The translations under genes were made by a program, and so were the position numbers. 64,000 nucleotides of DNA from an uncultured Mycoplasmatota bacterium (GTDB lineage Bacteria; Bacillota_I; Bacilli_A; RF39; UBA660), in contig UQOS01000004.1 of assembly GCA_900542735.1 (NCBI GenBank), positions 35-64,034 on the forward strand, written 5' to 3'. Below the pieces are notes generated by a model, which was given only the letters and a program-made list of their open reading frames with translations, was not told the DNA's origin and did not search any database. Shown here piece after piece: positions 10,130 to 38,749 of this stretch; position 1 is the first letter of the stretch, and every line of letters begins with the position of its first letter.

Positions 10130-10147
10130 AATTACCTCCAAAAAAAG

Positions 10148-17488: not shown

Positions 17489-17534
17489 ATTATCACCTAC
17501 TTACGAATAAAACTATCATTTTTTATTAAAAATT

Positions 17535-17548
17535 ATTTCCCGGGAAAT
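17535..17548. promoter_or_regulatory. Noc-binding-site palindrome ATTTCCCGGGAAAT within AAAATTATTTCCCGGGAAATAATC (pth-rsmI intergenic)
   Basis: Perfect match to the B. subtilis Noc-binding-site 14-mer. A CCCGGG is otherwise very rare in this AT-rich sequence. Confidence 0.7.
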
Positions 17549-17552
17549 AATC

Positions 17553-18395
17553 TTAGTGCTTTTCCATATGATATTCCTTATAAACAACCGATTTTGGAAT
17601 ATCTCTTTCAACAGCCACTTTCTTAATAGCCTCTTTTTCACTCATACCATCTTCTAAATAAAGACGAATATGTTCTAAAATGGTCATACTAGAATAATCT
17701 TCTTGTTCCAAATTACCCTCAACAACGACTACCATTTCCCCTTTTATAGAATCCACTACCTCTAGTACATCAGTAATAGTACCACGAATAGCTTCTTCAT
17801 ATTTTTTACTGATTTCTCTACATAAAGCAATCTTACGATTTCCAAATACCTCAAGTAAAGAAGTAAGCATATCTTGAATTCTATGTGGTGCTTCATACAA
17901 GATGATAGTATAAGGTAGTTTTTTCAAAGTTTCAAGCTCTTTTTTTCTTTTTAAATCCTTACTATTTAAAAAACCATAAAATAAAAAAGGAGCAGGATTA
18001 ATACCAGACATAGTCAAAGCTGGAACAAAAGCCGTTGGTCCTGGCAAACTAATTACATTAAAGCCATGACTAGTAACATACTCTACTATCTTATACCCTG
18101 GGTCACTAATAATAGGAGTACCTCTATCTGTCACAAGACCAATATTATTTCCTTCTTGTAGTTTTGATAATACCATTTCTTTTAAAGAATCTTCATTATG
18201 ATCATCAGAATGAATAAGTTTTTTCTTTATATTTAATTTATGCAACAGTTCACTAGTAACTCTAGTATCTTCACATAGTAAAAAATCAACCATTTCTAAT
18301 GTATGAATAGCTCTAAGCGTAATATCTTCCATATTACCAACAGGAGTTGGAATTAAATATAAACTAGGACTATTATCATAACTATTTTGTCTCAT
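17553..18395 (-). CDS. rsmI: 16S rRNA (cytidine1402-2'-O)-methyltransferase RsmI
   Basis: LYLIPTPVGN and CEDTR motifs. Confidence 0.8.
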   Translation of the reverse strand: MRQNSYDNSPSLYLIPTPVGNMEDITLRAIHTLEMVDFLLCEDTRVTSELLHKLNIKKKLIHSDDHNEDSLKEMVLSKLQEGNNIGLVTDRGTPIISDPGYKIVEYVTSHGFNVISLPGPTAFVPALTMSGINPAPFLFYGFLNSKDLKRKKELETLKKLPYTIILYEAPHRIQDMLTSLLEVFGNRKIALCREISKKYEEAIRGTITDVLEVVDSIKGEMVVVVEGNLEQEDYSSMTILEHIRLYLEDGMSEKEAIKKVAVERDIPKSVVYKEYHMEKH

Positions 18396-18412
18396 AAAAA
18401 ATCACCTCTATC

Positions 18413-19150
18413 TTATTCAAACATTTTTAATACTTCATCGGTATAATCACCATTCTGTTTATGAATATATAATGGTGGTAACATTTTTAAACTACTATTT
18501 CCCATTTTTCTACCTTCAATAAGCATTAAATTAGATTCACTATTTTCTTTTGGGTAAATAAATTGAATTTTTTTAATTTCGATTCCATATTTTTTAAATT
18601 TTTCAATAATTTCAATTAAACGCTCAGTACGGTGAACCATAGCAAAAACGCCATTATTTTTTAATAAATATTTAACTAACGATAAAATATCATCTAACTC
18701 TATCATTTTTTCATGTCTAGCTATTATTTTATGAATATCATCATTTAAATAACTACTCTCACGATATTTAAAATAAGGAGGATTACACAAAATTACATCA
18801 AAAGAGTCACCTTCATAAATATCTTTTAATTTTTTCATATCGATATTATAAAGTTGAATTTGATTTTCAAGATGATTATATAAAACACTCTTTGTAGCTA
18901 AATCATAACTATCTTTTTGAATTTCAACCCCAACAATAAAAGCTTTTGTTTTAGTAGAAAGAATTAAAGGAATGGGAGCATTGCCACAACCTAAATCGAG
19001 AATTTTTTTCGTTTTTGGATTAATTGTAACAAAATTAGCTAGTAAAACCGAATCTAAAGAAAAAGTAAACCAGTCAGAATTCTGATAAATTTTCAGATTT
19101 TTATAACCAACTAAGTCATTTAAAACTTCCATGTTATACATCAACCTCAA
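18413..19150 (-). CDS. SAM-dependent N6-adenine methyltransferase (YabB/TrmN6-like)
   Basis: DLGCGNA SAM motif and an NPPY catalytic motif. Confidence 0.6.
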   Translation of the reverse strand: MRLMYNMEVLNDLVGYKNLKIYQNSDWFTFSLDSVLLANFVTINPKTKKILDLGCGNAPIPLILSTKTKAFIVGVEIQKDSYDLATKSVLYNHLENQIQLYNIDMKKLKDIYEGDSFDVILCNPPYFKYRESSYLNDDIHKIIARHEKMIELDDILSLVKYLLKNNGVFAMVHRTERLIEIIEKFKKYGIEIKKIQFIYPKENSESNLMLIEGRKMGNSSLKMLPPLYIHKQNGDYTDEVLKMFE

Positions 19151-19922
19151 CTAATGTTTTATTTTTCGTTTCAACCGTAATCTTTCTCCTAAAAACATTC
19201 AAAGATACTACTTTTCCATCAATGCCATTTTCATGATATAGCTGTCCAACACGAGGAAAGTCTTTTTTTAACTCTGAGTAAGTTTGATCTTCATAATTAA
19301 GACAACATAATAATCTACCACAAACACCATTAATTTTACTTGGATTTAGTGCTAACATTTGATTTTTTGCCATATTAATAGATACGCTATTAAAATCTGT
19401 TAAAAAGGTACTACAGCATAAAAATCTACCACAAGGACCAATACCACCAATTTCTTTTGCTTTATCACGAACACCTATTTGTCTTAATTCAATTCTAGTC
19501 TTATAAATTTGTGCTAACTTCTTTGCATATTCTCTAAAATCAACTCTAGCATCTGCTAAGAAATTAAATAATAATTGTGTTCGATCAAAATTATAAGTAG
19601 CATCAATAATATTCATATTTAAAGACATTTGACTAGCAATTTCTCTAGCTTTTGAAACAGCATTATTAGCATCTTTTTGATTCTTTAAATACTTTTTTTC
19701 ATCTTCTTTAGTTGCAATACGAATGACATTTTTTAATGAAAAACCAATATCCTCATCTGCTACTTCATAAGTACTAACAACAACTTGTCCATATTGAAGA
19801 CCTTTTTCTGTCTCTACAATAACATTCATTTTCTTCTTCAAATCAAAATTTTGACTATTAAAAAAATAAGTTTTTCCTTTTCCATTTAAAGCAATTCCGG
19901 AAACTTTATACACTATAATCAC
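19134..19922 (-). CDS. yaaT: PSP1-domain protein YaaT/RicT
   Basis: Cys-rich PSP1 C-terminal pattern (GPCGRFLCC...GRLLCC). Conserved position between holB and the methyltransferase. Confidence 0.7.
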   Translation of the reverse strand: MIIVYKVSGIALNGKGKTYFFNSQNFDLKKKMNVIVETEKGLQYGQVVVSTYEVADEDIGFSLKNVIRIATKEDEKKYLKNQKDANNAVSKAREIASQMSLNMNIIDATYNFDRTQLLFNFLADARVDFREYAKKLAQIYKTRIELRQIGVRDKAKEIGGIGPCGRFLCCSTFLTDFNSVSINMAKNQMLALNPSKINGVCGRLLCCLNYEDQTYSELKKDFPRVGQLYHENGIDGKVVSLNVFRRKITVETKNKTLVEVDV

Positions 19923-20806
19923 CCCCTATTAAATTCAATAATAAATTGGTCTAACATCATTGGCATATTTAAATTATAATCTAAACGCTTAATACAAGTA
20001 AACAAAACTTCAATCTTAGAAATTATATTTTCAAAAGAATTAGAATTTATAATAATATCTAATATCTCACCAAAATTATAATAATTTAAATTTTTATATT
20101 TTCTGATAGCATTATCATATACTTGAATCATATCATAAAAAACATCATTCCAAAATTCTCTATTTCTATAATCATTTTCAAGTACAATAGGCAAATAACT
20201 AATAGAATGTAGTTTTCTTTGTTCTAAGGTTTTAATAATCTCACAAGCTTTATCAAAATTTTCTGAAGTTTTCTGGTGATTTTTATTAATGAAAGTATAA
20301 ATCTGACATCTACTTCTAATTGTTTCTAATACTTTATAACGGTTATCAACTTCAAGAATAGCAATAACATTACCATCTGGTTCTTCCAAAAACTTTAATA
20401 AAGAATTGGCTGCTTGCTTATTTAATTTATCAGCTTGTTTAATTAAATAAATACGAGGTCTATTTTGAAAAGAAGTAGTTTTAAATTTTTCCTTTATTTC
20501 TAATATTTGATCTTTTTTAATCCAACTACCATCTGGTGATATTACTAAAAAATCAGATAACGAATGATTATCAATTAAATGACATATATTACATTCATTA
20601 CAACTATCATAATTAGTATAATGGCTTGTACAAAATAGAGTTTTAATAAAAGAAAGAATTAAATCATCTTTCTTCTCATATTGATTTGTCTCTATTAAAA
20701 AAGCATGACTAAGTTTATGATTCTTAATACTATGCATAACTTGTTCATAAAATAAAGGTTGTTCTTCTTTATAATTATCTAACATATTTATCACCTCAAA
20801 AAGCAA
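19919..20806 (-). CDS. holB: DNA polymerase III delta-prime subunit
   Basis: 295 aa with the AAA+ clamp-loader layout. Sits in the conserved holB position next to yaaT, as in Bacillus. Confidence 0.65.
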   Translation of the reverse strand: MLFEVINMLDNYKEEQPLFYEQVMHSIKNHKLSHAFLIETNQYEKKDDLILSFIKTLFCTSHYTNYDSCNECNICHLIDNHSLSDFLVISPDGSWIKKDQILEIKEKFKTTSFQNRPRIYLIKQADKLNKQAANSLLKFLEEPDGNVIAILEVDNRYKVLETIRSRCQIYTFINKNHQKTSENFDKACEIIKTLEQRKLHSISYLPIVLENDYRNREFWNDVFYDMIQVYDNAIRKYKNLNYYNFGEILDIIINSNSFENIISKIEVLFTCIKRLDYNLNMPMMLDQFIIEFNRG

Positions 20807-21014
20807 TCACCAATAATAAAATTAATGATAATAAAGCTGGAAAACCAAGCAAAGTAATAGAAGTTAATGTAATAATATTAATAGGTATCACAAGATTAAA
20901 ATTACTACCAATTGTATTAAATCCATATAGAATAACAAAACTAAAAAACACTCGTCTTAATAAGTAAAATATTTTTTTAAACATATTATTATCACCTATT
21001 AAAAAGTATGACAT
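20796..21014 (-). CDS. bofA: BofA-like small membrane protein (pro-sigma-K processing inhibitor family)
   Basis: VIPINIITLTSITLLGFPALLSLILL resembles the BofA C-terminal helix (HVPINLVTTAISGILGIPGIAAL). Bacillus-like position next to recR. Confidence 0.45.
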   Translation of the reverse strand: MSYFLIGDNNMFKKIFYLLRRVFFSFVILYGFNTIGSNFNLVIPINIITLTSITLLGFPALLSLILLLVIAF

Positions 21015-21024
21015 AATTAAATAC

Positions 21025-21621
21025 TTATTCTACATTTTTTCTATCAACCAATGCTCTTTCTAATGTCATAGCATCAATATATTCCATATCAGCCCCAATT
21101 GGAATACCACTAGCTATTTTAGTAATAGAAATATTCATATCACCTAGAATTCTTTTAATATATAAAGAAGTAGTTTCTCCCTCAATACTAGGTTTAAAAG
21201 CTAATATAATTTCTTTAAAAGATTCGTTTTTAACTCTATCAATTAGCTTTTCTAACTCAATATCTTCAGGATTTATTCCATCTAGTGGAGAAATTAACCC
21301 TTTTAAAACATGATATTTTCCTTTGTATAGCCCTAATTTTTCAAAAAGAAAAACAGATTTAGGATCTTCAACAACACAAAGAGTATCATCACCACGAGAT
21401 TTATCATTACAAATAGGACAAACATCTAAATCAGTAATACCATTACAAATAGGACATTTATGAATTTTGTTTTTTATATTAGATAAACAAGAAGAAAAAA
21501 ATTCAACTTGTTCGTCGTCCATATCCATAATAGCAAAAGCAAATCGTTCTGCTGTTTTTTCTCCTACTCCAGGTAAATACTTAAAAGATTCTATTAATTG
21601 TTGTAGACTATTAGGATACAT
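21025..21621 (-). CDS. recR: Recombination protein RecR
   Basis: HhH motif LPGVGEKTAERF, a C4 zinc finger and a Toprim domain. Confidence 0.9.
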   Translation of the reverse strand: MYPNSLQQLIESFKYLPGVGEKTAERFAFAIMDMDDEQVEFFSSCLSNIKNKIHKCPICNGITDLDVCPICNDKSRGDDTLCVVEDPKSVFLFEKLGLYKGKYHVLKGLISPLDGINPEDIELEKLIDRVKNESFKEIILAFKPSIEGETTSLYIKRILGDMNISITKIASGIPIGADMEYIDAMTLERALVDRKNVE

Positions 21622-21629
21622 AATTACTC

Positions 21630-21929
21630 CTAAAATAGGCCACCAGGCATCATACTACTATATTTTCCCATTTTTTGTTCTGTTACTTTATCAATTTGTT
21701 TAAAAGCATCATTTAAAGCAACTACTAACATATCTTCTATCATTTCTTTATCATCACTAGTAATATCATCATTATCAATAGTAACTTTTGCTACCTCTTT
21801 GTTTCCCTTTACAGTAACACTAACAAATGAGCTAGTTCCTGTAAAAGTCATATTGTCAATTTCTTCTTTTGTCTTCATCATATCTTTTTGTAAAGTTTGT
21901 GCTTGTTTCATTAAAGCTTGTATATTCAT
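21630..21929 (-). CDS. ybaB: Nucleoid-associated protein YbaB/EbfC
   Basis: 99 aa with the ...MMPGGLF C-terminus. Confidence 0.85.
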   Translation of the reverse strand: MNIQALMKQAQTLQKDMMKTKEEIDNMTFTGTSSFVSVTVKGNKEVAKVTIDNDDITSDDKEMIEDMLVVALNDAFKQIDKVTEQKMGKYSSMMPGGLF

Positions 21930-21946
21930 ATTTATCTCCTCTTTTC

Positions 21947-23626
21947 TTAATTAATTGATACCATATCTTCACCAAATAACTTAATAGCCTGTGATTTGAT
22001 ATCACCACTATTACTATTTCGTACTGGTAATGTATCTTTATCACTATCCCTATCAATTGTAACATATTGATAAAGAACATGATTATTCATATTTTGAATA
22101 TATTTTTCTTTTTCTTGATTCCACTCATCATCAGTTAATAAAGCAACGTCATAATGTTTCTGATAAATTTTTTCTAATAATTTCTGAATTTTTAAAATCA
22201 TAGAAAATCCCCTATTAATCATGGATTCATAATTAAAAGATAAAATAACTTCTCCCAATCCAACTGCTCTTATCTTACCATCAGATATAAAACAAGCAGC
22301 AGCCCCATATTCACTATCTAATGCATAATCATTTAAGGAATTCCATTTAGATTCAAACATTCTTTTCTCATTTTTATCAGCTCTGGCAAAACAATTATTA
22401 ACAATCATATCATTTATTTTACCATTTTGTACCAAATTATCATCAGAAATTATTTCCCGGGAAATAATTTTACTTTCTAAATGAGAATTATTATCATTAA
22501 TATCTATTTTTTCTGTATTTTTTGTATCTTCACTACTCTTAGGAATAGATATATCACTTTTAGCTTCTATTTTTTCATTATTTTGTATATTAGCATTCTT
22601 ATTCATATAATTTAAAAAATAAATTTCCACAATTGTTTTAATATCAGAGCTAAACTTAATTTCTTTTAATAAATCATTTAAAAGAATAGAAAAAGAAATT
22701 AAAAAATTAGAATCATATTGAGAATCATTATTAATATAATAATTTATTATTAGGTCTTTACACAAATATAATAAGTCTTGAACAAATAAAACAAAATCTT
22801 TTCCATTATCATATATAGAATCAAGAAAATTAATCGTGTTAGAAATATCACTTGCTTGAATATAATTCAAAAACTGAATTTTTTGTTCTTTGGAAACAAT
22901 ACCATTTACTTTTTCAAAATCATCAATAGTAATACTAGAGTTAGAATATGCATTTAATTTATCTAACATACCAACAGCATCTCTAAGTCCACCATCAGAC
23001 AAATTAGCTATCATTTCTAATACATTATCTTCAATCCTAATATTTTCAGCTTCACAAATATATTTTAATCTGTTAACAATATTTACATTACTAATTCTAT
23101 GAAATTCAAAACACTGACATCTTGAAATAATTGTAGTAGGAACCTTATGTAAATCAGTAGTAGCTAAAATAAATATTACATGCTCTGGTGGTTCCTCAAG
23201 TGTTTTTAATAAAGCGTTAAATGCTCCAATAGATAACATATGTACTTCATCAATAATATAAACTTTATATTTTAGTTGATTTGGAACTAAGTTAACCTTA
23301 TTTTTTATTTCACGAATTTCATCTACTCCATTATTAGAAGCAGCATCTATTTCAATAATATCTGGACAAGATCCTTCATTAATAGAAACACAATTTTCAC
23401 ATTTTCCACAGGCATCTCCATCTTCCAAATTTGTACAATTTACAGCTTTAGCTAAAAGTTTAGCAATTGAGGTTTTTCCAATTCCTCTTGGTCCAGAAAA
23501 CATATATGCATGACAAACTTTATTGTTTAATAAAGCGTTTTTCAAAATTTGTATTACTACATTTTGGCCAATTACATCATTCAATGTAGACGGTCTATAT
23601 TTACGATATAAAGCTTGATAGGACAT
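21947..23626 (-). CDS. dnaX: DNA polymerase III subunit tau/gamma
   Basis: GPRGIGKTS Walker A, a Cys4 zinc module and clamp-loader domains. Confidence 0.9.
   Translation of the reverse strand: MSYQALYRKYRPSTLNDVIGQNVVIQILKNALLNNKVCHAYMFSGPRGIGKTSIAKLLAKAVNCTNLEDGDACGKCENCVSINEGSCPDIIEIDAASNNGVDEIREIKNKVNLVPNQLKYKVYIIDEVHMLSIGAFNALLKTLEEPPEHVIFILATTDLHKVPTTIISRCQCFEFHRISNVNIVNRLKYICEAENIRIEDNVLEMIANLSDGGLRDAVGMLDKLNAYSNSSITIDDFEKVNGIVSKEQKIQFLNYIQASDISNTINFLDSIYDNGKDFVLFVQDLLYLCKDLIINYYINNDSQYDSNFLISFSILLNDLLKEIKFSSDIKTIVEIYFLNYMNKNANIQNNEKIEAKSDISIPKSSEDTKNTEKIDINDNNSHLESKIISREIISDDNLVQNGKINDMIVNNCFARADKNEKRMFESKWNSLNDYALDSEYGAAACFISDGKIRAVGLGEVILSFNYESMINRGFSMILKIQKLLEKIYQKHYDVALLTDDEWNQEKEKYIQNMNNHVLYQYVTIDRDSDKDTLPVRNSNSGDIKSQAIKLFGEDMVSIN
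22452..22465. promoter_or_regulatory. Noc-binding-site palindrome inside the dnaX coding sequence (AGAAATTATTTCCCGGGAAATAATTTT)
   Basis: Perfect 14-mer plus extended arms. On the minus strand it encodes ...ISREIIS... in the DnaX linker. Confidence 0.65.
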
Positions 23627-23686
23627 AATTACACCTCCAAAACATACAAGTATATTATAACATTAAAAAAGCAACAATTAGAACAA

Positions 23687-24145: not shown

Positions 24146-24160
24146 CTAACAATAAAAAAA

Positions 24161-24232
24161 GTGCACATAAATATAAAATGTTAAGGCTGCTATCTTCCAA
24201 TCCTGACCTGGTTCCATCAATATTTATTGCAC
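24161..24232 (-). ncRNA. ffs: Small (4.5S-like) signal recognition particle RNA
   Basis: Minus strand: GUGCAAUAAAUAUUGAUGGAACCAGGUCAGGAUUGGAAGAUAGCAGCCUUAACAUUUUAUAUUUAUGUGCAC. It carries the domain-IV hallmark ACCAGGUCAGGA...GAAG.AGCAGCC. The closing stem GUGCAAUAAAUAU/AUAUUUAUGUGCAC is followed by U7. It sits next to tadA/dnaX, as scr does in B. subtilis. Confidence 0.5.
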
Positions 24233-24266
24233 GTATATATAATAATATATTTTTTCAAAAAAAACA

Positions 24267-24284
24267 ATGTTTCACGTGAAACAT
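24267..24284. promoter_or_regulatory. parS site 1 (ATGTTTCACGTGAAACAT)
   Basis: Perfect 18-bp palindrome matching the ParB/Spo0J parS consensus tGTTtCACGTGAAAca. Confidence 0.8.
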
Positions 24285-24378
24285 TGTAAATTTTTACTTA
24301 AATTAAGTTTTTTATGTATCAAAAAGTAATTTTTTTAAATTTTAAGTCAAAAAAACATTAAATATTTGAATATTTTGT

Positions 24379-24421
24379 ATGTTTCACGTGAAACATTGTG
24401 GAAAATTATTTACCGGGAAAT
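24379..24421. promoter_or_regulatory. Composite: parS site 2 (24379-24396), TGTGGAAAA DnaA-box-like (24397-24405), Noc-site variant ATTTACCGGGAAAT (24408-24421)
   Basis: Read directly from the sequence. Confidence 0.75.
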
Positions 24422-24695
24422 AATTTTTAGTATATTATTCATATTTTTTCATAAAAGTGTGAATAAAAATAACTGTTAAATACTAATTAATTTTTTTTAA
24501 ACATAAATGAAGTTAGTTTCATTATTAGTAGAATAAATTATTAAATATTAAAATTATATAAAATAATTAACATTACACCACTCCCAACTATTAGCTTATC
24601 AGCAAATAAATATAATAATTATTAAATATATCATAAATATTGATTATTACATTTTTATATTTAAAATTTTGATAAAAATCAAATCAATATTATCT

Positions 24696-24713
24696 ATGTT
24701 TCACGTGAAACAT
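24696..24713. promoter_or_regulatory. parS site 3
   Basis: Perfect ATGTTTCACGTGAAACAT. Confidence 0.8.
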
Positions 24714-25000
24714 GTGCATAACTAATCTTTAATAATTGAATAATATATTAGTTATAATTATATATTAAATAGTACTTCGATTACAGATCAAAATTTAAAA
24801 TAACTTATTTCATTTTAAAATATGATTATAATATTTGAAAATATTGATAATTAATTAAAAAAATAATTATTTGTTTTTAATTATAATAAATAAAATCAAA
24901 TATATATTTAATTTTTATTTAAATAATGTCTTTTGAAATAAATATTATTTAATATTGTAAGTAACAAATTAAACTATTAAAAAAGGTACATAAATTATCT

Positions 25001-25043
25001 ATGTTTCACGTGAAACATTGTGGAAAATTATTTCCCGGGAAAT
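25001..25043. promoter_or_regulatory. Composite: parS site 4 (25001-25018), TGTGGAAAA (25019-25027), perfect Noc-binding site ATTTCCCGGGAAAT (25030-25043)
   Basis: Read directly from the sequence. The Noc-binding site is embedded in AAAATTATTTCCCGGGAAATAATTTTT. Confidence 0.8.
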
Positions 25044-25336
25044 AATTTTTGGTACAATGTTGATAACTTCCTAAAAAATTAATAAAAATAAGCTATTGAT
25101 ATTAATTCATTTTCTAAACATAAACAAATTATATTATTTGCTTTATTAATATAATTAATTATTAAGCATAAATATTTTAATTACTTATTAAAATTAAGAT
25201 TATATAAAAATAAATATGCAATTCCAACTATTAATTTATTAATATATTTACATAATTATCATTAAATACATTATAAGTATTAGTAATTATATTGATTATG
25301 ACATTTCTTGATTTAATATTTTAATAAATATTATAT

Positions 25337-25378
25337 ATGTTTCACGTGAAACATGTGGAAAATTATTTTCCAGGAAAT
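25337..25378. promoter_or_regulatory. Composite: parS site 5 (25337-25354), TGTGGAAAA (25354-25362), Noc-site variant ATTTTCCAGGAAAT (25365-25378)
   Basis: Read directly from the sequence. Confidence 0.7.
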
Positions 25379-25610
25379 AATTTTAATGCATATTTATTAT
25401 TTTTTTAATAAAATTTATGATTTATTAGATTAAAAATAATCACTATCATTAATTAAAACATTAATTAATAATATCTAAATTTTTAAATAATAATCAAATA
25501 AAATAAAAAAATATATTTAGTATTTGTTTGAATAGTATTATTTAAAATAAATACTATTTGAACATTGTAGTAATAAACACTAAATAAATTTAAAAAGATA
25601 CATAAATATC

Positions 25611-25653
25611 TATGTTTCACGTGAAACATTGTGGAAAATTATTTCCCGGGAAA
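25611..25653. promoter_or_regulatory. Composite: parS site 6 (25611-25628), TGTGGAAAA (25629-25637), perfect Noc-binding site (25640-25653)
   Basis: Read directly from the sequence. Confidence 0.8.
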
Positions 25654-25712
25654 TAATTTAAAAAAAAATACATATAAATATATGTATAATTTTTCAATAG
25701 CTTTGTTTTTAG

Positions 25713-25744
25713 TTATCCACAATGCAATAGTTTCACGTGAAACA
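25713..25744. promoter_or_regulatory. Consensus DnaA box TTATCCACA (25713-25721) next to parS site 7 (AGTTTCACGTGAAACA, 25729-25744)
   Basis: Read directly from the sequence. Lies 15 bp downstream of the gyrA stop. Confidence 0.7.
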
Positions 25745-25757
25745 TAAAAGAATGTAC

Positions 25758-28394: not shown

Positions 28395-28405
28395 ACTACG
28401 CCTCC

Positions 28406-30343: not shown

Positions 30344-30346
30344 ATA

Positions 30347-31462: not shown

Positions 31463-31566
31463 ATAAAACCCCAAAAAAACTCATATTATCACCTTTTATA
31501 TCTTTTTTGTACTCCTATACCTACATATACATTATACCATAATACAAGGCTAAAAACATAAAAAAA

Positions 31567-31588
31567 AGAAGTTTTTCTTCTTTTTTTT
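31567..31588. terminator. Palindromic rho-independent terminator (AGAAG-TTTTT-CTTCT flanked by A/T runs). It serves the ComK-like gene on the minus strand.
   Basis: A stem plus a U-run on either strand. Confidence 0.5.
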
Positions 31589-32042
31589 AACTATTTTTTA
31601 CCTTTTTTCGTTCATTCAAAAGAGTATTTAATCTAGAAGCACGCATAATCTGATTTTTTATAGAAGCAACAGAACATTTACAGATAATTCTTTTACCATT
31701 TTTAAATTCCACATATGTAGTACCATTTTTTTCATAAACATCTTTTATCCACTTTAAAGATAACCATACACAGTGTTTATCTTCTGGTGAAGCAATCGGA
31801 AAAAAAATTAAATCTGAGCTTTCTTCGACAATTACAGGCACCTTATAATTAGCCCCTAATATTTTTTTACTTCCATCTACTCTTCCCGTATAACTACTAC
31901 CAAAATATCTACAAGAATAATCCATTACTTCATAAGCAGAATCATTAATAAAATATTCATTTTCTGTTTCAATAACTCTAGTTGCATTCTTATTTACTCC
32001 CATAACAGCAGCAGTATCTTCATTTACTTCGTAATTTTCCAT
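31587..32042 (-). CDS. ComK-family protein (competence transcription factor family). It occupies the slot where Bacillus has yaaA/rlbA.
   Basis: Aligns with B. subtilis ComK: YEVN...AV; SCRYFGSSYTGRV versus SCRFFGSSYAGRK; VPVIVEESSDLIFFPIAS versus PPIMVDPSNQIFLFPTLS; CVWLS versus CGWIS. It is 151 aa and shorter at the C-terminus. Confidence 0.6.
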   Translation of the reverse strand: MENYEVNEDTAAVMGVNKNATRVIETENEYFINDSAYEVMDYSCRYFGSSYTGRVDGSKKILGANYKVPVIVEESSDLIFFPIASPEDKHCVWLSLKWIKDVYEKNGTTYVEFKNGKRIICKCSVASIKNQIMRASRLNTLLNERKKVKNS

Positions 32043-32142
32043 AATAATCTCCCCCTACAATTTCTAATAAAATTGTGAGGCTTACTATAACAGATAACTA
32101 TGTCGAAAAAAGTAGAAAGAAGGAAAAAATAATAATTTATGA

Positions 32143-33264
32143 TTAATATGTTCTAATTGGTAATACTAATTGTGTTAAACCTTCGTCTTTTTTAGATTTT
32201 AAAATAATAGGTTTTACTTCTCCAACAAAAGAAATTTCTACTTGTTCATCATCAAATGATTTTAAAGCTTCCATCATATATTTAGCTACAAATGATATTT
32301 TTAAATTTTCACTGTTATCTTTTTCTATATTCATTTTTTCTTCTACTCTACCTATTTCAGCAGAACTACTTCTAACAAATAGTTTATTACCATTAATTTC
32401 AAAAGTAACAATATTTTTTTCTTTATCACTAGTTAAAATACTAGCACGATCGATTACATTATATAATTCATTTACATTTACTTTAATAGATAACATAAAT
32501 TCATCAGGTAATAAATTAGCTGTATTAGGATAAGTTCCATTAATTAATCTAGATTGAAATAAAATATTTTGATATTTAATTAATACTTTATTATTAAAGA
32601 TATGTAATTCAATATTATCTTCACTATCGTCCATAATCTTAATAAATTCTAATAAGTTCTTACTAGGGATAACGATATTATAATTTTCTTCTACAGCATT
32701 ACTTAATGTTAATAACTTTCTAGCTAAACGATAACTATCTGTAGAATTACATTCCATGGTATTACCTACTATTTTAAAGTTAATACCAGTTAAGATTGGT
32801 CTAGATTCATCTGTAGAAGATGCAAATGATGTTTGAGAAATAATACCTCTAAAATCACGACCAGCTAAAATTAAAGGATTTTTACTTAATTCTAAATTAA
32901 TAGCAGGATATTCATTTTTATCAATACCATTTAAATTAAATTCACTATTATCAGTATAAATAGTAATTTTTAGTTCATCTATTACTTCTATATTGATAAA
33001 TTCATCTGGTAATTTTCTAACGATATCGAGAATGTACTTTCCTTGAATAATAATACTACCCTCTTTTTCAATTTCCATTTCTTCTGTTTTGTCAATAAAT
33101 ACTTGAATGGTAATATCATTATCACTAGCTGTTAACATTAATCCTTTTTCTGTTAAATCAAATTTAATTCCAGCAAGTACTGGTACTAAATTTTTAGTAG
33201 ATAAAGCTTTAGATACTTTATTAAGTCCATCTAATAATATTTCCTTTTTAATTTTTAATTTCAT
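32143..33264 (-). CDS. dnaN: DNA polymerase III beta sliding clamp
   Basis: 373 aa with three-domain clamp architecture. Position 3' of dnaA. Confidence 0.9.
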   Translation of the reverse strand: MKLKIKKEILLDGLNKVSKALSTKNLVPVLAGIKFDLTEKGLMLTASDNDITIQVFIDKTEEMEIEKEGSIIIQGKYILDIVRKLPDEFINIEVIDELKITIYTDNSEFNLNGIDKNEYPAINLELSKNPLILAGRDFRGIISQTSFASSTDESRPILTGINFKIVGNTMECNSTDSYRLARKLLTLSNAVEENYNIVIPSKNLLEFIKIMDDSEDNIELHIFNNKVLIKYQNILFQSRLINGTYPNTANLLPDEFMLSIKVNVNELYNVIDRASILTSDKEKNIVTFEINGNKLFVRSSSAEIGRVEEKMNIEKDNSENLKISFVAKYMMEALKSFDDEQVEISFVGEVKPIILKSKKDEGLTQLVLPIRTY

Positions 33265-33304
33265 ATTTAATTCCTTCTTTCTTATTATCTATTATTATTA
33301 TTAC

Positions 33305-33403
33305 TGTGGAAAATGTGGAAAACTTCATATTTACTTTATTTTAACACATATTTTTAAAAAATAGGTTGTGGAAAACTTTTTGATTTTTTAAACTTTATCC
33401 ACA
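33305..33403. promoter_or_regulatory. oriC DnaA-box cluster (dnaA-dnaN intergenic): TGTGGAAAA x3 (33305, 33314, 33367) and TTATCCACA (33395-33403)
   Basis: Four DnaA boxes within 100 bp of an AT-rich region. The arrangement mirrors the Bacillus incC/oriC2. Confidence 0.8.
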
Positions 33404-34804
33404 TCATACTATTTCTTTCTTTAATTTTTCAATAATATTAGCTAATTCTTTATTTGTTAAAACTTCTTTTTCAATCTTTTCTACAGAGTGCATTACTGTC
33501 GAATGATCTTTTCCACCAAAGTCTATTCCTATTTTAGGAAATGATTCATTAGTAAGTTTTCTACATAAATACATAGCTACTTGTCTTGGAAATGCTAGAT
33601 TTGAGCTTCTTTTTTTTGATTTTAAATCTTCAACTGATACTTGAAAATATTCTGCTACAATTCTTTGAATTCTATTAACACTATTTTTTTCACTATATCC
33701 TTTGTTTACAAAGTCTTTTAATACATCAACTGCTAAATCTAGTGTAATTTCAGCACCACCCATAATTGTGGAATAAGCAAGTAGCCTCGTAATAGAACCC
33801 TCAAGGTGTCGTACATCACTTCCTACATTAGAAGCAATATATTCAATGACATCATCAGGAATATTTTTATTAATAGACTCCCCTATTATCTTTTTCTTAA
33901 TAATAGCTACTCTTAATTCGAAGTCTGGTGGAAAAATATCAGCTGTTAATCCCCAACAAAATCTAGTCCTTAAACGGTCTTCCAAAGATTTTAAATCATC
34001 TGGCGATCGGTCTGATGAAATAATAATTTGTTTATTTTCATCATATAACTTAGTAAAAGTATTAAAGAATTCGTTTTGTGTTTGTGGCGCACTTTGAAAA
34101 AATTGAATATCATCAACGATAAGTACATCAACACTTCTATATTTATTTTTAAAATAAGATACATAATCAAAATTTTTACCGTATTCATCTTTTTTATTAA
34201 TTCCTAAAAAGTCTGTAATGAATTGGTCACTTGTCACATATAAAACTTTTTTACTAGAATGTTCTGTAATATAATTACCAATTGCGTGCATTAAATGTGT
34301 TTTTCCTAATCCACTATTTCCATATATAAATAAAGGATTATATAGTACTCCAGGATTTTCAGCTACTTCTAAAGCAGCAGCCTGAGCAAATTTATTAGTA
34401 TTACCAACAATAAAGTTTTCAAAAGTAAATTTCTTATTTAAATTAGAACAAAAATTAGTATTTTCAAAATGATGAGTGGTATTAGTTTCTTTATTATTTT
34501 GAGTATACATAGGACTGATAGGACTATTATCTTCTTGATTATTCTTTAAATCATCTATTTCTTCCTGTGTATAAAACTCAATATCAACATTATCTCCTAC
34601 TACATTACTAAGATTATTAACGATTAAATCATAATATTTAGTAGTTAAATGCTTTTTATACATTGCCATTGGAACAATAATTTTACAAACACCATTACTA
34701 TATTCATAAAGTTCAGTATTTTTAAACCAAGTTTCAAAAGACAGAGGATTCATTTCGGTTTTTATGCTGTTTAAAAAATTAGACCATATTATTTTTACAT
34801 TCAC
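33404..34804 (-). CDS. dnaA: Chromosomal replication initiator DnaA
   Basis: AAA+ Walker A GNSGLGKTHL. C-terminal DnaA signature HTTVMHS..KIEK. Confidence 0.95.
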   Translation of the reverse strand: MNVKIIWSNFLNSIKTEMNPLSFETWFKNTELYEYSNGVCKIIVPMAMYKKHLTTKYYDLIVNNLSNVVGDNVDIEFYTQEEIDDLKNNQEDNSPISPMYTQNNKETNTTHHFENTNFCSNLNKKFTFENFIVGNTNKFAQAAALEVAENPGVLYNPLFIYGNSGLGKTHLMHAIGNYITEHSSKKVLYVTSDQFITDFLGINKKDEYGKNFDYVSYFKNKYRSVDVLIVDDIQFFQSAPQTQNEFFNTFTKLYDENKQIIISSDRSPDDLKSLEDRLRTRFCWGLTADIFPPDFELRVAIIKKKIIGESINKNIPDDVIEYIASNVGSDVRHLEGSITRLLAYSTIMGGAEITLDLAVDVLKDFVNKGYSEKNSVNRIQRIVAEYFQVSVEDLKSKKRSSNLAFPRQVAMYLCRKLTNESFPKIGIDFGGKDHSTVMHSVEKIEKEVLTNKELANIIEKLKKEIV

Positions 34805-34862
34805 CTATTATCACCCCTGACTCCAGTTAATTCAAAATTGCAAGTCTTATTTTAACTTAAAA

Positions 34863-35029
34863 CTGTGGAAAAATAAATAGGTATTTTTGTATTTTTTCTA
34901 ATTCACAATTAATCCACAACTTTTTCCACAACTAAAATACATATAGAATAAGATAAATACAAACTTTTCCACATTTTAAAAAAAATTAAATTCACAGTGT
35001 GAAAAAAGTTTTAAACAATGATGTGGAAA
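34863..35029. promoter_or_regulatory. oriC DnaA-box cluster upstream of dnaA: TGTGGAAAA (34863), TAATCCACA (34909), TTTTCCACA (34921, 34964), TGTGGAAAA (35021), plus A/T-rich tracts
   Basis: At least five boxes within 170 bp between dnaA and rpmH, as in the Bacillus oriC1/incA-B. Confidence 0.8.
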
Positions 35030-35065
35030 ATGTTGAAAACTATGAAAATGGACCAATTTTAAATA

Positions 35066-35078
35066 ATTTTCCGGAAAT
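35066..35078. promoter_or_regulatory. Noc-site-like variant ATTTTCCGGAAAT (one C:G pair short) inside oriC, 3' of the DnaA box at 35021
   Basis: AATAATTTTCCGGAAATAATT. It repeats the DnaA-box-then-Noc-site arrangement seen in the array. Confidence 0.4.
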
Positions 35079-35141
35079 AATTGACAAAACTATCAAAATC
35101 TTATTATAATAATGGAGATTTTATGTCTGGAGGTGGAATGA

Positions 35142-35264
35142 ATGAAAAGAACTTATCAACCAAATAATCGTAAAATGAAAAAAGCCCATGGATTTTTTTC
35201 AAGAGTTAAAGGTAATGTATTAAAGAAAAGAAGAGCAAAAGGCCGTAAAAGATTATCTAAATAA
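35142..35264 (+). CDS. rpmH: 50S ribosomal protein L34
   Basis: [46 protein letters not shown] ribosome-binding site. It falls below the ORF-track length cutoff. Confidence 0.8.
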
Positions 35265-35268
35265 AAAT

Positions 35269-35291
35269 ACCACGAATAGTGGTTTTTTTTG
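35269..35291 (+). terminator. rpmH terminator: ACCAC-GAATA-GTGGT followed by T8
   Basis: A hairpin plus a T-run immediately after the stop. Confidence 0.6.
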
Positions 35292-35315
35292 CTTTTTAAA
35301 GAAATAGGTGAAAAA

Positions 35316-35657
35316 ATGAAAAAAAATAATATTGTAAAAGAAAGTAAAGATTTTGAAAAAGCAATTAAAAGAGGTAAATTTTATAAAAATAATTTATATA
35401 TTATATATGTAATTGATAACGATTATAATAATTATCGCTTTGGAATATCAGTGGGTAAAAAGATTTCAAACAAAGCTGTTATTAGAAATAAATTGAAACG
35501 AAGATTAAAAAATATTATTGATAAATATCAAAATTTATATCAAAATCATAAAGATTATATTATAATAATGAAAAGAAGTTGTTTAGACAAAAGCTATCAA
35601 GAACTAGAAAGCAGCTTTCTTGAAATAATGAAGAAAATAACAGTAAAGGAGAATTAA
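35316..35657 (+). CDS. rnpA: Ribonuclease P protein component
   Basis: Basic 114-aa protein with an FGISVGKKISNKAVIRNKLKRRL RNase P motif. AGGTG ribosome-binding site. Confidence 0.75.
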   Translation: MKKNNIVKESKDFEKAIKRGKFYKNNLYIIYVIDNDYNNYRFGISVGKKISNKAVIRNKLKRRLKNIIDKYQNLYQNHKDYIIIMKRSCLDKSYQELESSFLEIMKKITVKEN

Positions 35658-36593
35658 ATGAAATCAAAAAAAGGAAAGATATTAATAGTTTTTCTATTAT
35701 TACTAACATTAACAACAGGTTGTACAAAAACATTAAAAGATGCAAATAAAAAGGTAGTAACTAATCCTGAAACAGGACAGAGTTTAACAGAAAATATTTT
35801 ATGCCAACCAGAAAACAAACAAACGATTAAAACTTATGAAGAAAATGGAGTAGATTTATCAAAATATCCAAAATGTAGTGAATTTAAAATCACTAGTGGT
35901 GGCTATGAAGGTTTATGGGATAGTATTTTTGTAAAACCACTTGCTTTTGTAATTTTATGGTTTAATAAATATGTAAATAGTGCAGCATTAGCATTAATTA
36001 TCACAAGTATTATTATTCGTTTAATTGCTTACCCAATCACGAAAAAAACAGCTATGCAGTCAGAGTTATTAAAAAAAGCTCAACCAGAATTAGAAAGACT
36101 TGAAAAAAAATATGCAAATAAAACAGATCAAGAATCTATTATGAGAAAAAGTCAAGAAATGACTATGATTTATAAAAAGTATAATATAAATCCAATCTCA
36201 GGTTGTATATATGGATTTATTCAACTCCCATTATTTATTGCCTTCTTAGAAGCAATTAACCGTGTGCCAGCTTTATTTGAAGAAACTTTCTTAGGATTAC
36301 AACTTGGTACAACCCCATCAATTGGTTTATTAAATCAAGGAAACTTCTTATATATTATTTTAATTTTATTAGTTGGATTAACAACATATTTTTCATTTAG
36401 TTTAAATAAAACAACAGCTCAGTCTGAAAATGATCCTATGAAAAATATGACTACAATGATGACAATTATGATCTTAGTAATGGGCTTCTTTATGCCAGCA
36501 GCTTTATGTATTTATTGGATTACAACTAACTTATTTACAGTAGCCCAAAATTTAATTGTAAAAAGGAGTAAGAATGATGTTAGTAAGAAATAG
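35658..36593 (+). CDS. yidC: Membrane protein insertase YidC/SpoIIIJ (lipoprotein type)
   Basis: Lipobox LTTGC and the 60-kDa inner-membrane-insertase conserved transmembrane core. Confidence 0.85.
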   Translation: MKSKKGKILIVFLLLLTLTTGCTKTLKDANKKVVTNPETGQSLTENILCQPENKQTIKTYEENGVDLSKYPKCSEFKITSGGYEGLWDSIFVKPLAFVILWFNKYVNSAALALIITSIIIRLIAYPITKKTAMQSELLKKAQPELERLEKKYANKTDQESIMRKSQEMTMIYKKYNINPISGCIYGFIQLPLFIAFLEAINRVPALFEETFLGLQLGTTPSIGLLNQGNFLYIILILLVGLTTYFSFSLNKTTAQSENDPMKNMTTMMTIMILVMGFFMPAALCIYWITTNLFTVAQNLIVKRSKNDVSKK

Positions 36594-37191
36594 ATATAGT
36601 GGTAAAACTAAAGAAGAAGCAATAAACAATGCAAAAATTGCTTTGCAAGAATTAGAAAAAGATTTATACATTAAAGAAATAGAAGTAAAAAATAGCCTTT
36701 TTAATAAGAAAGTAGAAATAGAAGTTATTAGACATGACGATGTAATAGAATATATTAAGGAATATTTAAAAGAATTAATAAAAAACATGGGTCTTACTTG
36801 TAACTTAGAAGTAAAAAAGAGAGAAAATGGAGTAAACATTACAGTAATTTCTGATAATAATTCTATTTTAATTGGTAAAAATGGTAGAACATTAAATGCT
36901 TTAAATCAATTATTAAAACAAGTATTATTTAATGAAATAGGAGAGTATTTTCCATTTAATCTAGACATTGGAGAATATAAAGTAGAGCGTGAACATAAAT
37001 TAGAATCTCTTGCTAAGCGTACTGCTAGAGAAGTAGCTATTTCAAAAGTAGAAGCAAAACTAGATCCAATGAATTCTTATGAAAGAAGAATTATTCATAC
37101 TGCTTTAGCAGATAATAAAAAAGTAATTACAGAAAGTGAAGGCGAAGAACCTAATCGCTATGTAGTTATTAAACCAAAGGAAGATGAATAA
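36574..37191 (+). CDS. jag: Jag/KhpB RNA-binding protein (KH plus R3H)
   Basis: C-terminal R3H motif (SYERRIIHTALA). Position after yidC. Confidence 0.75.
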   Translation: MMLVRNRYSGKTKEEAINNAKIALQELEKDLYIKEIEVKNSLFNKKVEIEVIRHDDVIEYIKEYLKELIKNMGLTCNLEVKKRENGVNITVISDNNSILIGKNGRTLNALNQLLKQVLFNEIGEYFPFNLDIGEYKVEREHKLESLAKRTAREVAISKVEAKLDPMNSYERRIIHTALADNKKVITESEGEEPNRYVVIKPKEDE

Positions 37192-37249
37192 TCTTCTTTT
37201 CTTTTTATAAAAAAAATGGTAGTATATGCTATATAAAAGAGGTGTTACT

Positions 37250-38605
37250 ATGAATGATACAATTGCCGCTATTTCAACTACTTTAGGAGTAGGTGCTATT
37301 TCTATTATTAGAGTAAGTGGAAATGATGCCATAAAAATAGTAAATAAGATATTTAAAGGTAAAAATTTAGAAAAAGTAGAAACGCATACCATTAACTATG
37401 GACATATTGTAGATAAAGATGAAATAATAGATGAAGTATTAGTATCAGTTATGAAATCTCCTAAAACTTTCACAACAGAAGATGTCGTAGAAATTAATTG
37501 CCATGGAGGTATTTCTACTACCAATAAAGTTTTGGAACTTGTATTAAATAATGGTGCAAGACTAGCAGAACCTGGTGAATTTACAAAAAGAGCTTTTTTA
37601 AATGGTAGAATAGATTTAACTCAAGCAGAATCTATAATGGATTTAATTAATTCTAAGAATGAATCTAAAAGAAAAGTAGCCATCAAAGGTTTAAATGGTT
37701 ATGTTAGTAATATTATTAGAAATTTAAGACAAGAAATACTAGAGTTACTTGCATCAATTGAAGTAAATATTGATTACCCAGAATATGAAGATGCAATTGT
37801 GATGACTAATGATATCGTAAAGCCAAAGATTACTGTAATAAAAGAAAAATTAACTAAAATTATTAATGAATCTGAAAACGGTAAGATTCTAACTAGTGGT
37901 ATTAAAACTATCATTATTGGAAAACCAAATGTAGGAAAAAGTAGCATTTTAAATAGATTATTAGATGAAGAAAAAGCAATTGTTACTGATATTGAAGGAA
38001 CAACTCGTGATACAGTTGAAGGTTCTATTACGATTAATGGAGTATCTTTAAATATTATCGATACAGCTGGTATTCGTGAAACAGAAGATATTGTAGAAAA
38101 AATAGGGGTAGAAAAGAGTTTAAGTTTAATTAATGAAGCTGATTTAATTGTTATTGTTTTAAATAATAATGAAGAATTAACAGAAGAAGATAAGAAAATA
38201 CTAACTGCTTGCAAAGATAAAAAGGTAATTGTTGTTATTAATAAAAGTGATTTAGAAAGAAAAATAAATTTAGATGATATTAAATATCAAAATATTGTTT
38301 ATACAAATACAATTGATTTAAATGGTATCAATTCTTTAAAAGAAAAAATAGTAGAATTATTTAATTTAAATGAGCTTGAACAACAAGATTATACTTATCT
38401 AAATAATGTAAGACAAATTTCACTAGCAAAAGATGCATATCAAATTTTAGAAGAAGTAGATAATGGCATAAAAAATGAAGTTCCAGTCGATATGATAGAA
38501 ATTGATATTAAGCGTGCTTGGGAAAAGCTTGGTGAAATAATAGGTGAAACTTACACAGAAGAATTAATAGACCAACTATTTAGTCAGTTCTGTTTAGGTA
38601 AATAA
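37250..38605 (+). CDS. mnmE: tRNA modification GTPase MnmE
   Basis: GKPNVGKSS G1 box, a DTAG motif and the C-terminal CLGK. Confidence 0.9.
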   Translation: MNDTIAAISTTLGVGAISIIRVSGNDAIKIVNKIFKGKNLEKVETHTINYGHIVDKDEIIDEVLVSVMKSPKTFTTEDVVEINCHGGISTTNKVLELVLNNGARLAEPGEFTKRAFLNGRIDLTQAESIMDLINSKNESKRKVAIKGLNGYVSNIIRNLRQEILELLASIEVNIDYPEYEDAIVMTNDIVKPKITVIKEKLTKIINESENGKILTSGIKTIIIGKPNVGKSSILNRLLDEEKAIVTDIEGTTRDTVEGSITINGVSLNIIDTAGIRETEDIVEKIGVEKSLSLINEADLIVIVLNNNEELTEEDKKILTACKDKKVIVVINKSDLERKINLDDIKYQNIVYTNTIDLNGINSLKEKIVELFNLNELEQQDYTYLNNVRQISLAKDAYQILEEVDNGIKNEVPVDMIEIDIKRAWEKLGEIIGETYTEELIDQLFSQFCLGK

Positions 38606-38658
38606 AATTATAAAAAATGTTATATAAATACAAAAATCATAATTTAAGGTCAAAAATT

Positions 38659-38672
38659 ATTTCCCGGGAAAT
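38659..38672. promoter_or_regulatory. Noc-binding-site palindrome in the mnmE-mnmG intergenic region (AAAATTATTTCCCGGGAAATAATTTTTT)
   Basis: Perfect 14-mer with extended arms. Confidence 0.7.
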
Positions 38673-38749
38673 AATTTTTTTCTATTTCTACTAAAAAAAT
38701 TAGAAATATAGTGTATAATAATTCCAGAAAAAAGAGGAAGTGTATCAAA

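Follow-up and report, generated by a model that had tools for sequence, protein, structure and literature searches.

Noc-binding-site palindromes interleaved with parS near the replication origin of an uncultured low-GC bacterium, and a predicted Noc orthologue without the membrane-targeting helix

Noc, the standard textbook example of a duplicated ParB, gained both a different DNA specificity and a different task, that of tethering to the membrane in nucleoid occlusion. The core of its Noc-binding site (NBS) differs from the ParB site, parS, at positions 1 and 6 only, and the choice between the two is set by four residues, with one Lys at position 179 or 184 sufficing for NBS specificity; Gly201 is reported to be invariant in ParB orthologues, and engineered dual-specificity variants often have Ser or Thr at that position (PMC7383237). 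NBS are distributed over most of the chromosome, with about 70 sites in B. subtilis and 41 loci in S. aureus (PMC4331003, PMC5540599). The Noc membrane helix (alpha-1, alpha-2, and a loop, about 26 residues) is Noc specific; nucleoid occlusion depends on it, and earlier work predicted it in every Noc homologue considered (PMC4331003, PMC8429893). Links to replication initiation have also been described: S. aureus Noc restrains initiation (PMC5540599), oriC-proximal DnaA-box clusters of B. subtilis act with Spo0J/Soj (PMC3245932), and in Caulobacter the centromere is bound by DnaA (Mera 2014, as related in PMC6399470). Here, we analyzed a 64,000-nucleotide stretch of contig UQOS01000004.1 from an uncultured Mycoplasmatota bacterium (hereafter the window, whose positions are used throughout), in which NBS palindromes alternate with parS in a gene-free island close to oriC.

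Pattern search located the 14-mer palindrome ATTTCCCGGGAAAT perfectly at 17535, 22452, 25030, 25641, and 38659, with degenerate copies at 24408 (one mismatch) and 25365 (two mismatches). Only 0.14 matches would be expected, and all 100 shuffles gave fewer than these seven. The 16-bp core, TATTTCCCGGGAAATA, has five perfect copies in the window and is identical to the published B. subtilis NBS (PMC7383237). Each copy is embedded in a longer 22-bp palindrome, AATTATTTCCCGGGAAATAATT, that is exact at 22448, 25026, 25637, and 38655, has one mismatch at 17531 and 24404, and has two at 25361. Across the clade, solitary and arrayed sites alike share the half-site A (81%), A (83%), A (83%), and T/A (99%) followed by TATTTCCC, on a background of about 40% A; judged from these flanks, the extension to 22 to 24 bp is real and conserved in the clade, and Noc may contact it or it may act through DNA shape. 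In the array modules described below, the left NBS flank overlaps a DnaA-box-like 9-mer. All five CCCGGG hexamers of the window fall within ATTTCCCGGGAAAT sites, against 0.34 copies expected.

Much of this had been proposed in a first-pass annotation of the same DNA, and most of it held: the five perfect positions (one of them given as 25640), the near-perfect variants at 24408 and 25365, the enclosing 22-bp palindrome, the improbable CCCGGG core confined to this context, and the assignment of the motif to Noc, given the identity of the core and the Gln, Lys, and Arg specificity residues of a Noc orthologue encoded in the window. A third variant listed at 35066 was dropped, as it is a shorter TTTCCGGAAA palindrome with five mismatches to the 22-mer, found in the same species only and absent in three relatives. 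The description of the sites as dispersed, taken in the Bacillus sense, was not supported by the sampled data. Their coordinates are confined to 17.5 to 38.7 kb of the window, from 17.5 kb left to 3.7 kb right of the origin and all within about 18 kb of oriC, and sites sampled in metagenomes are likewise mostly origin proximal.

The origin itself is marked by a change of sign in GC skew at about 34 to 35 kb, where gene orientation also flips. The gene dnaA (33404-34804, minus strand) is flanked by clusters of DnaA boxes, mostly of the TTTTCCACA variant, that together with it form the oriC region (33305-35030). On one side the gene order is dnaA, dnaN, a ComK-like gene, recF, gyrB, and gyrA, and on the other rnpA, yidC, jag, mnmE, mnmG, rsmG, a Noc-like gene, parA, and parB, which is the order typical of a Firmicute origin. 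From the skew switch, the gene order, and the DnaA-box clusters on both sides of dnaA, the window is therefore centered on oriC, at about 35 kb.

All seven parS sites of the window and four of its seven NBS lie in a 1.5-kb gene-free island (24244-25757; 15.3% GC), bordered by the small signal recognition particle (SRP) RNA gene ffs on one side (24146-24243, minus strand; Rfam RF00169, 55.4 bits) and by the 3' end of gyrA on the other. The island lacks any open reading frame as long as 80 codons and represents an old, diverged tandem duplication whose unit measures about 620 bp. It is probably untranscribed, given a gyrA terminator at one border and, at the other, an ffs gene oriented away from it. 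Six parS are perfect copies of TGTTTCACGTGAAACA and one has a single mismatch, against 0.28 expected; they conform to the 16-bp palindrome TGTTNCACGTGAAACA, lie 9 to 11 kb from oriC, and are accompanied by both parA and parB.

Each of the four island NBS (24408-25654) sits 11 to 12 bp to the right of a perfect parS, in a module that reads parS (16 bp), 0 to 1 nt, a DnaA-box-like 9-mer, 1 nt, and NBS (16 bp). The first module (24380-24422) consists of parS 2 (24380-24395), TGTGGAAAA (24397-24405), and an NBS with one mismatch (24407-24422); the second (25002-25044) of parS 4 (25002-25017), TGTGGAAAA (25019-25027), and a perfect NBS (25029-25044); the third (25338-25379) of parS 5 (25338-25353), TGTGGAAAA (25354-25362), and a decayed NBS with two mismatches (25364-25379); and the fourth (25613-25655) of parS 6 (25613-25628), TGTGGAAAA (25630-25638), and a perfect NBS (25640-25655). 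The four NBS are paralogous copies of one module, and the window therefore holds four independent NBS loci rather than seven. The remaining parS stand without an NBS. A perfect parS 1 (24268-24283) lies just upstream of ffs, parS 3 (24697-24712) is abutted by the DnaA-box-like TGTGCATAA (24713-24721; unit 24697-24721), and parS 7, with one mismatch (25729-25744), follows a perfect DnaA box, TTATCCACA (25713-25721), just downstream of the gyrA stop codon and terminator (unit 25713-25744). The NBS at 25029 is followed on its right by ACAATGTTGATA (25045-25061), a decayed half-parS, and the two flanks of this NBS make up a more extensive inverted repeat (fold of -17.3 kcal/mol, z = -4.0) that hints at a symmetric parS-NBS-parS ancestor.

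The spacer 9-mer TGTGGAAAA has as its reverse complement TTTTCCACA, the DnaA-box variant present in seven of the nine boxes flanking dnaA of this organism. When one mismatch to TTATCCACA is allowed, the island has eight boxes in 1.5 kb compared with 0.33 per kb by chance, four of the eight being paralogous copies. In the clade, a box oriented TGTGGATAA (at most one mismatch) begins 0 to 2 nt after parS in 57 parS flanks from 21 loci; about two such abutments would be expected by chance, an estimate that puts the enrichment at about 30-fold. The perfect consensus is the commonest form among these boxes, and 31 of the 57 continue into an NBS 1 to 4 nt further on (12 loci, including Clostridium sp. 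CAG:710). In the intergenic part of the gyrA-dnaX interval, the density of perfect boxes is also 4.7 times that in the remainder of the loci. The predicted DnaA box in the island is a recurrent but lineage-restricted feature.

Other identities were considered for the island. It is not the real origin, as GC skew and gene orientation switch at dnaA (33.3 to 35.0 kb), where the main clusters of DnaA boxes also are, and not at 24 to 25.7 kb. Derivation from a plasmid or mobile element found no backing, as blastn against 72,556 plasmid and 50,697 phage records gave no match, and a hidden RNA gene was rejected, as Rfam returned only the SRP RNA at the edge and there were no tRNAs. That SRP RNA is of the small (4.5S-like) type, which fits a reduced genome; the SRP RNA of Bacillus and Clostridium is of the large type.

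The other three NBS are solitary. A perfect TATTTCCCGGGAAATA copy lies between pth and rsmI (17534-17549), a position also occupied in five metagenome loci and in L050 and L084. A second perfect match (38658-38673) lies about 40 to 100 bp upstream of mnmG, and a perfect NBS is found in the same place in L127, L128, and L129, whose Noc-like proteins are 64 to 72% identical; these 21-kb loci contain no further NBS and no parS. In relatives this site stays about 90 to 100 bp upstream of mnmG, including where mnmE and mnmG are separated by further genes.

The third solitary site (22451-22466) lies inside dnaX (21947-23626, minus strand), at nucleotide 1161 of the gene, where it encodes ISREI within KIISREIISDD in the hypervariable tau linker. 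A perfect NBS was present in 22 of 69 full-length dnaX genes of relatives, always in the frame (K/E/Q)(I/N)ISREI(I/K/N) and in a linker that cannot be aligned, 20 to 60 residues before the conserved IRINN motif. The codons used are the rarest in the genome for their residues (TCC, 1.7% of Ser; CGG, 0.8% of Arg). Retention of ISREI for protein reasons was rejected, as DnaX linkers without an NBS have no such peptide and the region is unalignable. Rare codons and the absence of the peptide where the NBS is missing indicate that the dnaX site is selected as DNA and is hosted where the protein tolerates change, which bears out the earlier proposals that the copy at 22452 encodes ISREIIS in the tau linker and is maintained against coding constraint. 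In L060 and L072, dnaX has two or three NBS spaced 45 to 48 nt apart, giving repeated NISREI peptides. Conservation in related genomes, on which the first-pass annotation had staked its reading, was found at all these positions: NBS are kept inside dnaX, upstream of mnmG, between pth and rsmI, and in the island.

To collect relatives, a single genome of each bacterial species was searched for the NBS core preceded, at a gap of 0 to 30 nt, by half a parS. At least 120 stretches matched, compared with an estimated 2 or so in random sequence. About 115 of those listed are from low-GC gut metagenome-assembled genomes (MAGs) labeled Bacilli, Tenericutes, Mollicutes, Erysipelotrichaceae, Clostridium sp. 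CAG:710 and CAG:1000, Candidatus Scybalousia, or Candidatus Onthousia. In the NCBI taxonomy, the Scybalousia among them belong to Bacilli incertae sedis, and we take the group to be GTDB order RF39. In more than 110 related genomes, with GyrA 58 to 91% identical to that of the window, the arrays always lie between gyrA and tadA/dnaX, and 102 of 104 parS in loci spanning this interval fall inside it. Array size ranges from one module to 13 alternating pairs, with regular units of 62 to 64, 75 to 76, 83, or about 160 to 170 bp; in a closed 1.31-Mb chromosome an 83-bp unit is repeated 13.2 times at 95% identity, and a second genome has 7.8 copies of a 64-bp unit. The number of NBS in the island changes quickly between close relatives.

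Within arrays, the closest adjacent parS and NBS are 16 to 18 bp apart and most pairs are 22 to 40 bp apart, center to center. The sites thus do not overlap, which fits co-occupancy rather than competition. Helical phasing of this spacing was considered and rejected: the genome set gave peaks at 25 to 27 and 35 to 37 bp (Rayleigh p about 1e-10 for a period of 10.5 to 11 bp), and an independent metagenome set failed to replicate them (p=0.66, n=57). Outside the clade, an Acidaminococcales MAG of 47% GC (L099:5930-6090) carries NBS-parS-parS-NBS between a Noc-like gene and rsmG, so that adjacency of the two sites may occur elsewhere in Firmicutes, in this case within a promoter region. The searchable literature yielded no description of alternating parS/NBS arrays, of helix-less Noc, or of Noc in Tenericutes or RF39.

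The extended 22-mer pattern, run against metagenomes, likewise matched at least 120 stretches. Those listed comprise 105 low-GC stretches with homologues of the origin-proximal genes of the window (mfd to rsmG), 12 low-GC stretches without a homologue of any window gene, and 3 from other taxa (higher GC), so that 105 of the 117 low-GC stretches have origin-proximal context. The 12 include two parS/NBS arrays on short contigs and about eight stretches at polC-polA-fpg. By position, the listed stretches have 64 NBS in the parS array, 20 inside dnaX, 19 or more in the gyrA/tadA interval, 11 at recF/gyrB, 9 at jag/mnmE, 7 at mnmE/mnmG, and 5 at pth/rsmI. About 90% of sampled NBS thus fall in a region that is a few percent of a 1.3- to 1.5-Mb genome. 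The recF/gyrB sites, seen in several relatives (L133:5032, L141, L151, L197, and L198), are intergenic in 2 cases and at the recF edge in 9; the window has none because only 3 nt separate its recF and gyrB. A second hot spot, outside the window, flanks polA between polC, polA, and fpg (L135, L180, L201, L232, L240, L242, and L159), with three NBS around polA in L201. In one contig, this locus is about 8 kb from dnaA.

The candidate partner of the NBS is encoded in the order rsmG(gidB)-noc-soj-spo0J that Firmicutes have beside oriC. The Noc orthologue (41417-42442, plus strand; 341 aa) has a ParB-type N-terminal domain with the GERR cytidine triphosphate (CTP)-binding box, a helix-turn-helix, a linker, and a Noc-like C-terminal domain; it is followed by parA/soj (42534-43322, plus strand) and parB/spo0J (43300-44193, plus strand; 297 aa), whose product has an N-terminal LGRGL ParA-interaction motif. 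Among solved structures, Noc is the best match (207 bits; ParB at most 178 bits), with residues 4-196 aligning to 7NG0, 7NFU, and 7OL9, and the RK2 KorB structures 8QA8 and 8QA9 are among the weaker matches. The NCBIfam Noc model TIGR04285 scores 281.7 bits, under its curated cutoff of 315, and the inserted linker limits the alignment to model positions 1-202 of 255. The motif is by sequence a member of the NBS family, and the protein is a Noc orthologue.

Residues at the four specificity positions (173, 179, 184, and 201 in Caulobacter ParB numbering) are Gln, Lys, Ser, and Arg, compared with Gln, Lys, Lys, and Arg in Noc. Q173, K179, and R201 are kept in all 120 close homologues (at least 62% identity), and Lys184 is replaced by Ser or Thr in the clade. 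ParB of the window, which best matches B. subtilis Spo0J (6SDK) and shares the GERR box with its paralogue, has Arg, Met, Thr, and Ser at these positions, the ParB norm being Arg, any, any, and Gly. The Ser lies in the motif ISMSHAR, at the equivalent of Caulobacter Gly201, and relatives vary between Ser and Gly. From these residues, the Noc-like protein is predicted to bind NBS and ParB to bind parS.

The Noc-like protein starts at MDREVVDLYLDDIIPNRFQPR, aligning from Noc residues 27-28, and is about 25 residues shorter at the N terminus. A good Shine-Dalgarno sequence lies upstream of this start codon, and an in-frame stop codon lies 33 nt upstream. The alignment identifies the missing segment as the N-terminal amphipathic membrane-targeting helix, and no strong hydrophobic amphipathic segment was found elsewhere in the sequence. 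All 120 homologues of at least 62% identity share the short N terminus, as do nearly all of the 150 best-scoring representatives of 50% identity clusters from a library of 1.84 billion proteins; in all 270 relatives examined, the membrane helix is absent or apparently absent. Wherever readable, these best 150 representatives have the Gln-Lys-x-Arg signature, and about a third have the Noc-like C-terminal motif under a strict pattern. The linker is disordered and rich in acidic residues and Pro in the window protein (about residues 204-280); in helix-less relatives (P0121-P0270) it varies greatly in length, is rich in Asn, Asp, and Gln, and reaches about 500 low-complexity residues, as in P0190 (798 aa). 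An AlphaFold model was confident only for the DNA-binding domain (81-198) and the small C-terminal domain, the N-terminal domain being poorly modeled because the alignment is shallow. Since the protein has no helix and scores under the family cutoff, we call it a Noc-type DNA binder rather than a nucleoid-occlusion protein.

We favor, with somewhat better than even confidence, the reading that the island is a composite origin-proximal loading platform that serves to organize or segregate the origin region and is possibly linked to DnaA. The palindromes would be the binding sites of the Noc orthologue, and the pair would act not in chromosome-wide, membrane-tethering nucleoid occlusion but at the origin together with ParB. 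On a platform about 9 to 11 kb from oriC, where NBS alternate with the parS sites of the region, ParB would load at parS and its anchor-less Noc paralogue at NBS, side by side and both as CTP-dependent DNA clamps, to build one mixed nucleoprotein complex. Such a complex may communicate with DnaA through the DnaA-box-like 9-mer in each parS-NBS spacer, and, through the solitary NBS (mnmG, dnaX, and pth/rsmI), the Noc-like domain would reach roughly 20 kb to each side of oriC. Observed here are the sites, how they are arranged and conserved, their restriction to the origin region among the sampled data, and the protein features; pairing of protein and site, clamp loading, simultaneous occupancy, and cellular function are what we infer from them.

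Several points weigh against this reading. The parS island is universal, and interleaving is frequent but not obligatory: in 12 loci picked by an NBS elsewhere, parS was in the interval in 12 of 12, NBS were there in 8 of 12, and directly adjacent pairs occurred in 5 of 12. A perfect DnaA box is present in the interval of only 15 of 88 loci. Origin restriction is drawn from metagenome stretches listed among at least 120 matches, for which the extended 22-mer flanks were required. Binding by all three proteins in this lineage is deduced from sequence, and spacers of 0 to 1 nt and 1 to 4 nt might cause the three proteins to exclude each other rather than bind together. An element that binds membranes may also be present in another part of the Noc-like protein or in a partner.

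That last point touches classical nucleoid occlusion, in which NBS scattered everywhere except near the terminus would let Noc spread, tether DNA to the membrane, and block the Z ring over the nucleoid. The exact NBS core and the Noc orthologue agree with it, as does an M23/LysM/G5 peptidase encoded in the window, which suggests that a cell wall is present. On the other hand, the N-terminal amphipathic helix needed for Noc function (PMC4331003, PMC8429893) is absent here and absent or apparently absent in the 270 relatives, the sampled sites lie within about 30 kb around oriC plus one other locus, and the outer 43 kb of the window has no NBS even when three mismatches are allowed. Membrane tethering by the Noc-like protein is accordingly improbable on its predicted features, and we consider classical occlusion as a whole unlikely.

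A regulatory role is about equally unlikely. The Noc-like protein would then be a silencer or operator-binding regulator of the KorB kind, with NBS as operators of origin-proximal genes (mnmG, ffs, and transcription on the gyrA side). RK2 KorB acts as a repressor, ParB-family clamps can repress promoters, and KorB appeared among the weaker structure matches; the constant NBS position upstream of mnmG despite inserted genes, the many intergenic NBS, and the placement of parS 1 just upstream of ffs would all suit operators. Such a role does not explain why the densest NBS arrays lie in a gene-free island beside parS, away from promoters, why 20 sites in the listed stretches lie inside the dnaX coding sequence, or why the number of island sites shifts so fast among close relatives.

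A ParB of dual specificity could bind both parS and NBS, making the array a ParB-only centromere and leaving the Noc-like protein redundant or otherwise employed. Ser201 of the window ParB recalls the engineered dual-specificity variants (PMC7383237), but Met179 and Thr184 stand in place of the Lys/Arg that NBS binders need, some array-bearing relatives keep Gly201, and the adjacent conserved paralogue has the full set of NBS-type residues. We regard this explanation as improbable. RNA hairpins acting as bidirectional intrinsic terminators are more improbable still. The mnmE-mnmG copy does fold (-9.1 kcal/mol) and is followed by seven T, and intergenic copies are flanked by A-runs or T-runs; the hairpins are nevertheless weak and no better than shuffled sequence (z = -0.5 to -1.9), a terminator scan flagged none of the palindromes, one copy lies inside dnaX, and the 16-bp core is, unlike terminators, invariant across species whose proteins are about 40 to 60% identical. 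The SmaI/XmaI-type restriction-modification target that the first-pass annotation had named as an alternative can be set aside almost entirely, for although CCCGGG is rare in the window and found only in this context, the 0.34 copies expected at 25% GC are too few for avoidance to be seen, conservation extends over 22 to 24 bp with conserved positions and parS adjacency, and no restriction-modification genes were seen among the annotated genes.

Two further features of the window stand apart from the sites. A ComK-family gene (31587-32042, minus strand) lies between dnaN and recF, with homologues in that place in most related loci that span the position, and a T-box leader (10160-10351, minus strand; Rfam RF00230, 97.9 bits) lies upstream of the open reading frame ending at 10141.

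A wider proposal can also be made, which we offer tentatively and rate below even odds: a large, mostly uncultured branch of low-GC Bacilli would have a two-clamp centromere, with ParB and an anchor-less Noc loading at alternating sites in a repeat island beside oriC and a DnaA box sandwiched between them in some lineages, thereby coupling segregation, origin organization, and initiation control. The arrangement could reflect secondary loss of the anchor, or it could be a surviving pre-membrane Noc, that is, a ParB duplicate with switched specificity acting at the centromere. A very large family of helix-less Noc orthologues (at least 150 best-scoring clusters at 50% identity), with sampled sites nearly all close to the origin and interleaved with parS, separates DNA specificity from membrane binding, and the separation of the two innovations suggests a different function for Noc-type proteins. 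The arrays, which mark the origin region in hundreds of gut MAGs, are natural substrates for asking how CTP clamps placed side by side may block, corral, or cooperate with each other, and how a DnaA site would fit between them.

Among known systems, RacA/ram and RicO/ricS (bioRxiv 10.64898/2026.03.06.710092) likewise rely on few specific sites confined near the origin and have a role there in organizing or positioning it. Unlike the Noc-like protein, RacA and RicO are unrelated to ParB and are membrane or pole anchored, and the ricS motifs are non-palindromic. Chromosomal ParABS centromeres share with this locus the parS consensus, the origin-proximal location, the nearby genes for ParA and ParB, and the LGRGL motif of ParB. 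Here, however, all parS lie in one gene-free island, often as homogenized tandem repeats of 62 to 83 bp, they alternate with sites of a second ParB paralogue, and none lies inside parB/spo0J. Plasmid centromere arrays such as F sopC consist of head-to-tail repeats with one palindromic ParB-family site each. The arrays described here are also head to tail and nearly identical (95% in L108), but they are chromosomal, keep a fixed syntenic position across the clade, and have two, sometimes three, kinds of site per unit. As in the accounts of Caulobacter parS and the B. subtilis DnaA-box clusters cited above, predicted initiator sites lie at the partition locus, where they would link initiation with segregation; compared with what those accounts describe, the predicted box here is only 0 to 1 nt from parS, is sandwiched against an NBS, and is present in part of the clade. 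The closest likeness is to the Noc-NBS system of B. subtilis and S. aureus, with which this locus shares the 16-bp core, the rsmG-noc-soj-spo0J order, Gln173, Lys179, and Arg201, the GERR box, and the Noc-like C-terminal domain. It differs in a Noc-type protein with a long disordered linker (about 500 low-complexity residues in relatives) and no membrane helix, and in NBS that are origin restricted in the sampled data, carry A/T flanks to 22 to 24 bp, and are interleaved with parS in tandem arrays.

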